IMG/VR virus record: IMGVR_UViG_3300035208_002804 | Span: 72,275 to 136,274 of that record | Strand: one strand, 5' to 3' | Length of the DNA stretch: 64,000 nucleotides | DNA from: a virus | Taxonomy: Duplodnaviria > Caudoviricetes | Shown: piece by piece, positions 15,910 through 16,603 of the stretch | Position numbering within the stretch: the first letter of the stretch is position 1 | Layout: each line of letters begins with the position of its first letter | Translations under genes and position numbers: made by a program | Notes under the pieces: model-generated | Databases searched by the model: none | Told to the model about the DNA's origin: nothing | The model's input: the letters and a program-made list of their open reading frames with translations, nothing else

Positions 15910-16097
15910 TATATAAGAGAAAGAGATTTACGGTATTTAAATAAACAATAAGAAGAAGAGAAAAGAGAGAAAGTTACTAAATTATTATAAAGTATAATAC
16001 AAACTATAAAATAGAGAAAGAAGAGGAAGAAAGGAAATATATGGAATCAATAACTGCTAACCAAAAGGTTTAAATACTCGTAATGTTATAAAGTAAA

Positions 16098-16330
16098 GTG
16101 CATCCCAAGAACAAGTTAAAATGAAAGGAAGACAGATTGACCACCTGTTTTCTTTTCTTCTTTTTTCTTGTTAGGCAGGTTGTTTCGTGCTATTTTCGTG
16201 GTCTGTTTTGCGATTTAACTGTTTTACATCGGCTTTTAATTGGATGGCTATATTAGGCAGGACCGGAATCACAATTGTGAATTATGAAGTGATGAAAATA
16301 GTTAAGTGTTATTAAATTGTAGAAAAGTGT
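16098..16330 (+). ncRNA. Structured ncRNA family copy N1 (3' end approximate)
   Basis: TTTAAATA at 16069, GTGCA start 29 nt later; GAAAGGAAGACAG/CTGTTTTCTTTTC and AACAAG/CTTGTT stems. Confidence 0.6.
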
Positions 16331-16339
16331 TACTTGCTA

Positions 16340-16524
16340 ATAGTATCCGGTAGATGGGAATTTAACCCATATATGTTCAATGTCACCGGTTCTTTAGCGT
16401 TGTCATGACACCGAACGGGTTTTCTACTAACTGCTTAATTACTACCGGTCAACAACCACACATGCTAAAACTCATAACAAAGAAAAGAAAAAGAAGAGGA
16501 TCCTTTCTCTGCTACTTGTTGCAC
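16340..16524 (-). ncRNA. Structured ncRNA family copy N2
   Basis: TATAAATA starting at 16552, GTGCA start at 16524; core TTGTTATGAG; stems CCGGTAG/CTACCGG and GTTCGGTGTCA/TGACATTGAAC. Confidence 0.7.
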
Positions 16525-16603
16525 TATATAGTTGTTGGTAATAGTATTTATAGTTAACTATGGAGATGAGAATTTCATCTATTTCTCTCTATCTCTCTCA
16601 TTT

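Follow-up and report, generated by a model that had tools for sequence, protein, structure and literature searches.

A probable family of conserved structured-RNA genes with their own promoter class in tailed viruses that point to archaeal hosts

Five loci, each preceded by an archaeal TATA box, had been pointed out in a preliminary description of a 64-kb stretch of viral DNA and were regarded as members of one family of structured non-coding RNAs. The question raised by these loci is whether they represent genes of such a family, how far the corresponding RNAs extend, and which role the RNAs might have for the virus. The whole stretch analyzed, referred to here as the window, comprises bases 72275-136274 of the IMG/VR virus record G000, which are its last 64 kb; positions are those of the window unless a genome or contig is named. 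All five loci, designated N1 to N5, were found where they had been placed, and the stretch containing these units is free of ORFs, as had been claimed.

The G000 record is linear, has a length of 136,274 bp and is about 95% complete. It codes for a tail tube protein, a large terminase (TerL), a tape measure protein of 2,294 amino acids, a family B DNA polymerase and an anaerobic ribonucleotide reductase, the latter two both containing inteins, and for RtcB. TerL of G000 has no close relative among deposited phages. Two related viruses were identified, G001 (143,525 bp, with terminal repeats) through TerL, which is 49% identical, and G004 (127,255 bp, also with terminal repeats) through the motif match L028, which at first looked like a chance match. 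In the exact-motif scans of IMG/VR with a 14-mer, a gapped 19-mer and the promoter motif of G001, nearly all matches were due to chance. In G000, G001 and G004, TATA-like octamers peak 30-35 nt upstream of leaderless ATGs, and Shine-Dalgarno motifs are present 9-15 nt upstream of other genes. The TATA spacing of the leaderless type, the genes with Shine-Dalgarno motifs and an intron-bearing tRNA-Met together point to G000 being an archaeal tailed virus with many leaderless genes. This tRNA-Met (CAU), with a 15-nt intron in the anticodon loop, is located outside the window at G000 13007-13094 on the plus strand (in L250), about 600 nt 3' of a further unit, G9; at the orthologous place in G004 (73957-74157) a tRNA-like T-arm/acceptor match was identified. 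RtcB, a bacterial-type RNA ligase encoded at G000 45696-46889, was considered as a clue to the host; its nearest relatives are bacterial (Firmicutes, about 50% identity), and it is uninformative for the host of G000.

Two other features of the genome were noted. A 95-amino-acid ORF at G000 47496-47783 (L252:7496-7783) matches only the C-terminal glycyl-radical end of NrdD; this ORF is located upstream of the intein-containing NrdD gene, and unit G10 lies just before the cluster. In addition, a very strong GC skew tracks gene orientation in the window at 34000-38000 and 40000-46000, with a value of +0.47 over a block of mainly plus-strand genes and of -0.34 to -0.56 over a block of mainly minus-strand genes, so that mRNA-sense strands contain markedly more G than C.

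With a profile HMM built from N1-N5, 11 copies of the unit were identified in the 136-kb genome of G000, with E-values from 1e-13 to 2e-23, the next match having an E-value of 0.008. Five of these copies are located in the window and six upstream of it. The complete relatives contain about 10 units (G001) and about 12 units (G004), one of the G004 copies being duplicated in the terminal repeat, and further copies are present on the metagenomic fragments L127, L334 and L336/L337. The proposal of a homologous, separately promoted, ORF-free and structured family thus stands, with 11 members in the record instead of the five described. Exact matches to TTGTTATGAG are present four times in the window, namely in N2-N5, and of its ten separate purine/pyrimidine tracts of at least 20 nt, five are unit 3' arms, where 0.24 such matches would be expected by chance.

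Most copies occupy orthologous positions in the gene order, as identified by matches of the flanking proteins. N1 and N2 converge in the gap that separates the tape measure gene from the tail-chaperone gene, and this pair corresponds to K1/K2 in G004 and to P2/P1 on L334; in G001, the same gap contains H9. Unit N3 corresponds by position to K3 and H3, and the fragment copy M1 joins H3 by sequence similarity. N4 and K4 both face the 3' end of an orthologous minus-strand gene, and N5 is the positional ortholog of K5. Outside the window, G8 corresponds to K7, G9 to K6, G11 to K8 and H1, G6 to K11, and G7 to H7. Since the flanking proteins are only 30-70% identical, the units are old and retained, and their fixed positions in spite of this protein divergence imply that they are under selection. 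The convergent pairs had also raised the possibility of a mobile element with terminal inverted repeats. In an all-against-all BLASTP of the ORFs, no paralogs common to the intervals bracketed by unit pairs were found; with neither a transposase nor a shared cargo between the pairs, and with copies that are diverged and positionally conserved, this candidate was rejected.

All units follow the same layout, which consists of a TATA box, a start at G or A, a purine arm, a loop and a conserved arm YUUUYUUUGUUA(U)GAG, usually followed 8-23 nt later by a run of four to six U. For N1, the TATA box (TTTAAATA) is located at 16069-16076 on the plus strand, and the G of GTGC lies 29 nt past its first T. 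The predicted small RNA extends from this presumed start at 16098 to a presumed end at 16196. Its main hairpin (16107-16178; MFE -27.5 kcal/mol, z -3.7) has a 9-nt apical loop, AUUGACCAC, and the first U4 run past the helix is found at 16193-16196. A loop of this type, AYURRCCAM, is present in N1 and its positional orthologs K1 and P2, and also in H3, M1 and H10; H9 is the positional ortholog of N1 in G001. The interval from the start of the tape measure gene to the TATA box of N1 contains two purine tracts of 24-25 nt (15950-15973 and 16013-16037, plus strand). On the minus strand these are C/T tracts, which any read-through transcript of N2 would meet before the tape measure promoter.

N2 is encoded on the minus strand, with the TATA box (TATAAATA on that strand) at 16545-16552 and the G of GTGC at 16524, 28 nt past the first T. 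The core of the predicted small RNA (16467-16524) contains the hairpin at 16470-16516 (MFE -21.6, z -3.9) and GUUAUGAG, followed by a U4 run; its positional orthologs are K2, P1 and Q1. The putative minus-strand frameshift extension of the tail chaperone ends at 16604, which is 52 nt before the N2 TATA box. This stop-to-stop frame of 91 codons (16604-16879) and the tail-chaperone ORF (16848-17345) overlap at the end of the latter. The frame, which L334-L338 also contain in conserved form (WYNGGGAHKIF...WNEIY), looks like the programmed-frameshift extension of a tail assembly chaperone of the G/GT type.

For N3 (33491-33637, plus strand), the TATA box is located at 33491-33498 and GTGC at 33528, with a 5' extension of about 6-8 nt, and the hairpin (33538-33637) carries two inserted inner hairpins. 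N4 (46154-46264, plus strand) consists of a TATA box at 46154-46161, the predicted start at 46183, a hairpin at 46192-46260 and a U5 run at 46260-46264. N5 lies on the minus strand (49611-49747), with the TATA box at 49747-49740, an expected start at about 49718, GTGT at 49691, the hairpin at 49682-49615 and a U5 run reaching 49611. In the ORF-free stretch between N4 and N5, a TATA box like that of N4 (TTTATATACTATTAA) was found on the minus strand (48940-49016), followed by a different hairpin of 60-70 nt (GAACGC...GCGUUC), the loop of which resembles the apical loops of the units, and by a U5 run. This locus is a candidate for a further small RNA gene.

The promoter geometry given in the preliminary description was reproduced, with the G of GTGC 29, 28 and 29 nt past the first T of the TATA box in N1, N2 and N4, and the 5' extensions ascribed to N3 and N5 are real, the corresponding offsets being 37 and 56 nt. 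In nine of the 11 copies in G000, the offset is 27-29 nt. As expected for archaeal promoters, the TATA box is thus located about 25-30 nt upstream of a predicted purine start, with the spacing present at the other genes of G000; the same spacing separates TATA box and ATG in the leaderless genes. Between TATA box and start, the units of G001 contain a 13-nt motif, all ten occurrences of which in that genome lie in units, and the units of G004 have a different conserved motif at the same place. These unit-specific motifs indicate that the units are co-regulated as a set, and that the region of the start is probably covered by a regulator site. A promoter of their own would be needed by N1, N4, N5 and G8, since these units have no co-oriented gene upstream; for N1, N4 and N5, a co-oriented gene is also absent downstream.

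The pairing between the two arms was analyzed in several ways. Each copy in G000 folds as a long hairpin, with z mostly between -3 and -4.4. Alignments of full-length units with MAFFT were too poor, and anchored registers and subsets of short-loop copies were used instead, the anchor for every copy being the C-G pair of (U)AAC/GUU(A), with no gaps in the register. In an arm-swap test, which had also been run earlier on 18 copies, cognate arms paired with -14.4 kcal/mol as compared to -11.9 kcal/mol for arms exchanged within a genome (z -6.9, p<5e-5); a value this low was not obtained in any of 20,000 permutations. For the sense strand, folding was more favourable than for the reverse complement, first in 18 of 18 copies and later in 33 of 33. 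An RNA helix with G-U pairs would behave in this way, and each copy contains 3-12 such pairs. These two tests bear out the view that a variable purine strand is complementary to a conserved U/C-rich strand solely on the strand defined by the TATA box, with G-U wobbles making the pairing strand-specific. The U-rich strand is also the most conserved part, as had been stated, with 1.48 bits per column for the 3' arm and 0.83 for the 5' arm.

In the anchored register, 91% of the pairs over 13 positions are canonical, and a shift of the partner by 1-2 nt lowers this value to 57-63%. At five positions of the helix, A-U, G-U and G-C alternate, and in four copies (N5, H9, K1 and P2) a purine-arm C lies opposite a pyrimidine-arm G. 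For 22 short-loop copies, RNAalifold gave 11 pairs, four of them with double changes. Pairing amounted to 95.7% as compared to 91.4±1.0% in shuffled alignments, and 19 double-change cells were found as compared to 7.8; none of 500 shuffles reached the observed percentage of pairs, number of double-change cells or covariation score, and all slid versions were lower. The 91% reached after shuffling is a high baseline, since a U-rich tract can pair fairly well with any run of purines, and with one arm of purines and one of pyrimidines the support for the helix consists of a modest excess together with the C-G flips. The main helix thus shows compensatory changes beyond both the shuffled and the slid controls, as expected for a conserved structured RNA. 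A covariance model built from these 22 copies, R1, recovered the unseeded copies G8, G6, N5 (G000 121889-121937, which is 49615-49663 in the window), K1, K4 and K11, with N2 as its best match in G000 at 44 bits. In 750 kb of other viral contigs, the model matched only relatives.

The extent of the RNAs differs from the first proposal. A length of 190-280 nt had been suggested, whereas conservation ends about 5 nt past GUUA, with an information content of at most 0.4 bits from 6 nt past the anchoring G, and the conserved core is about 50-110 nt long. A conserved second domain was likewise not borne out, since the alignments of N4 with K4 and of N5 with K5 lose similarity just past the U-run (GUUAUGAG and U-run). 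This drop in conservation and the divergence of the two pairs imply that the conserved unit consists of promoter, hairpin and GUUA(U)GAG. In 23 of 36 copies, a U4-6 run is present 8-23 nt past the helix and is likely to be the point of termination, giving predicted RNAs of 52-101 nt from the GUGC start. As the pairs at the base of the helix involve GUUA, the RNA must run through the internal U-tracts. N3 may be longer, since it has no U4 run within 70 nt past the helix, and the same may apply to H4, H8, K2 and P1, which also have no early U-run. The closing stem proposed between the 5' GUGC and a 3' GCAY was not supported by the swap test (p 0.44), which has low power because both sides are conserved. 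Closure by these sequences is possible in seven of the 11 copies in G000 and is sequence-conserved only in this genome; long closures occur in single copies, with 9 bp in G8 and 10 bp each in N3 and K6. Some short motifs are shared among 3' regions, ACAATACAGATCGA by N3 and N5 (33655-33830 and 49470-49600) and ATAGTGACGG..TCTAC..GTGACAGCGG by N3 and N4 (33655-33830 and 46275-46420), and the alignments with K4 and K5, the orthologs in G004, did not show these motifs. Small ORFs starting at GTG or at the AUG in GUUAUGAG were also considered as products of the units and rejected; they comprise 3-19 codons, are not conserved, and the AUG is missing in many of the G001 copies.

Directly 3' of the N2 hairpin, a tRNA-like cloverleaf is located at 16346-16448 on the minus strand, specific to G000. 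The tRNA model RF00005 matched this domain over its full length (1-71) with 26.9 bits, the gathering score being 29, and with E-values of 1e-3 to 1e-4. The element has a 7-bp acceptor stem, a D arm and a T arm (MFE z -3.35), and on the anticodon side 9 unpaired nt followed by an over-long arm of 12 bp. A tRNA would require at least 29 bits and a canonical cloverleaf, in which the anticodon stem has 5 bp and the loop 7 nt. With a score under the cut-off and an abnormal anticodon arm, and since ARAGORN did not call it with or without introns, the element was classified as tRNA-like and not as a tRNA. It is absent past the orthologs K2 (G004) and P1 (L334); the putative cloverleaf is a genome-specific addition and not a feature of the family. 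Cleavage by RNase P at this cloverleaf, which would set the 3' end of N2, is speculative. A role of the units as tRNA leaders was dismissed; N2 alone has a tRNA-like 3' domain, and past the other units RF00005 and ARAGORN found nothing besides the tRNA-Met about 600 nt after G9.

That the units belong to no known family agrees with the absence of any Rfam 15 match at gathering thresholds in the whole window. Permissive Rfam scans of the units gave matches at chance level only, such as miRNA precursors with 20-23 bits (cut-offs 75-110) and ctRNA_p42d with 14-23 bits (cut-off 50). For C/D box sRNAs, which are defined by a C box RUGAUGA and a D box CUGA forming a kink-turn near paired termini, no family exceeded 17 bits, and on inspection of N4 and N2 the 5' strand opposite AUGAG contains no GA dinucleotide. 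Neither kink-turn nor bulge-helix-bulge motifs were seen on inspection of the units. RNAs of the Sm class are characterized by a single-stranded R-A-U(4-6)-G-R site between helices and by binding of an Sm ring; GAGUUUU(U)R was found past the helix in 11 of 36 copies at an offset of 8-10, and a second flanking helix was not supported. Scans of the neighbouring proteins with Pfam and PHROGs identified no RNA-binding partner. Judged by homology and copy number, by their conserved positions in different viruses, by the geometry of their promoters and by a main helix that covaries and pairs in a strand-specific way, the units are with good confidence a real and conserved family of structured-RNA genes, of which transcription, RNA ends and role are presumptive. 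The roles first suggested, as decoys for aCPSF1/FttA or Sm-like proteins, in anti-defence or as guides, are likewise hypothetical. The family, absent from Rfam, is more numerous and more widely conserved, yet shorter and simpler, than first proposed.

As the best explanation as a whole, we tentatively propose that the units are conserved hairpin small-RNA genes with self-masked U-tracts that act in trans. They would be short viral genes with a dedicated promoter class, composed of a TATA box and a virus-specific element just upstream of the start. Each RNA would form one long hairpin, with a 3' strand of U4+ tracts ending in GUUA(U)GAG that resembles a strong terminator, and a 5' strand that is a freely evolving purine tract, its complementarity being kept by A-U, G-U and G-C pairs. 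Such abundant, stable and self-masked U-tract RNAs might then target proteins of the host or the virus that recognize U-tracts or purine:pyrimidine helices, examples being aCPSF1/FttA, a nuclease of transcription termination, and Sm-like proteins; with 10-12 copies the dosage would be high, and contacts specific to each paralog would be made through the variable loops. For the archaeal Sm-like proteins, relatives of Hfq, binding to U-rich RNA is among the properties described (PMC3710371, PMC10779274). A role in trans is favoured because four units cannot be transcribed from a gene upstream and three lack a downstream gene that they could regulate, and because of the high copy number and the paralog-specific loops. 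However, a duplexed U-tract would be a poor bait for proteins that bind single-stranded U, and a trans-acting, factor-engaging mechanism by itself is possible but doubtful. The more specific idea, that 10-12 co-regulated RNAs resembling self-masked terminators, with a multi-U-tract strand that their co-evolving purine arm either hides or exposes, capture aCPSF1/FttA or Sm-like proteins and in this way reprogram termination or RNA decay during infection, is a bold and improbable one; if true, it would represent the first RNA-based takeover of the archaeal termination machinery.

The same features can be read as border modules acting in cis, each unit being a terminator combined with a promoter, or a promoter-proximal attenuator. 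Hairpin and U-tracts would then end the transcripts of the upstream operon and most of those from the unit's own promoter, and regulated read-through, by a viral antiterminator or by a change in FttA, would control the next gene, or yield an antisense RNA where that gene is convergent. Seven of the 11 units in G000 start 21-135 nt past a co-oriented stop codon, eight of the 11 have a co-oriented gene 190-530 nt downstream, and positions and orientations are conserved between the viruses, including N4 and K4, which face the same convergent gene; a C/T tract very similar to the 3' arm of the units is present at an ordinary gene end of G000 (59045-59068), and the unit-specific promoter element implies co-regulation. 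However, co-orientation with neighbours is expected of any gene in strongly polarized genomes. At G7, G8, G10 and N3, the sites that were read, the downstream gene has its own TATA box, with leaderless spacing in G8 and N3, and a co-oriented gene that could be controlled is missing at N1/K1/P2/H9, N4/K4 and N5/K5. Termination would also not require a 5' arm that co-evolves in pairing with the U-tract. A cis-acting role is the main rival of the role in trans, although a rather unlikely one.

Both the R-loop or DNA roles and the longer RNAs of the first proposal are less likely than the trans role or the cis-acting modules. RNAs of 190-280 nt, with a hairpin closed by GUGC/GCAY and a functional second domain, would account for the seven copies in G000 that can close in this way and for the long closures of G8, N3 and K6, for the continuation of N2 into a tRNA-like fold, for the 3' motifs common to N3, N4 and N5 and for the missing early U-run of N3; against them stand the outcome of the closing-stem swap, the loss of similarity past the U-run in N4/K4 and N5/K5 with the low information content there, and the missing tRNA-like element in K2 and P1, so that this reading is unlikely. 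Still less probable are DNA or R-loop elements, in which a purine-rich RNA hybridized to its pyrimidine template would prime replication or recombination, or in which the DNA itself would form a hairpin or a protein site. The purine tract lies directly past the start and N4 and N5 converge on an ORF-free stretch, as such elements might, but the arms co-vary as a hairpin with G-U pairs in each copy, which favours pairing of RNA over DNA and is not needed for an R-loop, and 10-12 dispersed copies in both orientations are many for origins. Non-functional dispersed repeats or a coincidence of low-complexity sequence are highly improbable. Low-complexity arms do pair easily by chance, as the shuffled baseline indicates, yet the positions are conserved across viruses with 30-70% protein identity, the pairing is register-specific, the promoter spacing is conserved, model R1 is specific, and neither paralogous cassettes nor transposase genes are present between unit pairs.

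To our knowledge, small-RNA genes that form a multi-copy family and have a promoter class of their own have not been described for any archaeal virus, and a full-text literature search for such a family revealed nothing comparable. The conserved half of the units resembles a signal read by the archaeal termination machinery, and the proposed small-RNA genes offer a handle on how archaeal viruses deal with host termination, with the protection of RNA 3' ends and with proteins that bind U-tracts. Should the units act as cis-regulators instead, they would still provide a promoter class, a site to which a regulator probably binds, and a covariance model with which this virus group can be annotated.

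Among known systems, the HSURs of Herpesvirus saimiri are paralogous small non-coding RNAs with their own promoters, in which U-rich single-stranded sites lie by stem-loops; they are made in bulk and bind Sm proteins. The units resemble the HSURs, and more loosely the EBERs of EBV and the VA RNAs of adenovirus, in comprising several paralogous viral small-RNA genes with own promoters. The latter systems, however, belong to eukaryotic viruses with Pol II/III promoters and have no sequence relation to the units, for which the host is archaeal, the U-rich strand is mostly paired, and binding and abundance are presumptive. In phage HK022, two put RNA elements are located upstream of operons and act in cis on the very RNA polymerase by which they were transcribed. 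They are, like the units, repeated promoter-proximal structured RNA elements of a virus, and they act on transcription termination, whereas several of the units have no downstream gene, and an effect on RNA polymerase would be hypothetical for them. The U-rich 3' end of MALAT1 and MEN-beta forms a triple-helix element and is followed by the tRNA-like mascRNA. Only N2 is comparable, with a U-rich element followed by a tRNA-like fold, which RNase P could cut to set the 3' end of the upstream RNA; in N2, however, the purine strand is located 5' of the U-tract, a 3' A-tail is absent, and the arrangement is lacking in the N2 orthologs. With bacterial intrinsic terminators and the 3' modules of Hfq-dependent sRNAs, the units have in common a short RNA with a dominant stable hairpin and a following U-run. 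The U-run of a bacterial terminator is not part of its GC-rich hairpin, whereas the U-tracts of the units form the 3' strand of the hairpin itself, the helix of which is rich in A-U and G-U pairs.

The likeness to archaeal terminators that had been seen in the U-rich strand is apt, since this strand contains several U4+ tracts, the signal described for archaeal termination (PMC8716108). The number of U4-tracts before transcript ends was shown to correlate with termination efficacy, and aCPSF1 binds such RNAs (PMC8716108). The 3' arm of the units with the following U-run is a cluster of U4+ tracts of this kind; unlike an ordinary archaeal terminator, the units combine this cluster with a dedicated promoter 40-100 nt upstream and with a co-evolving purine arm.
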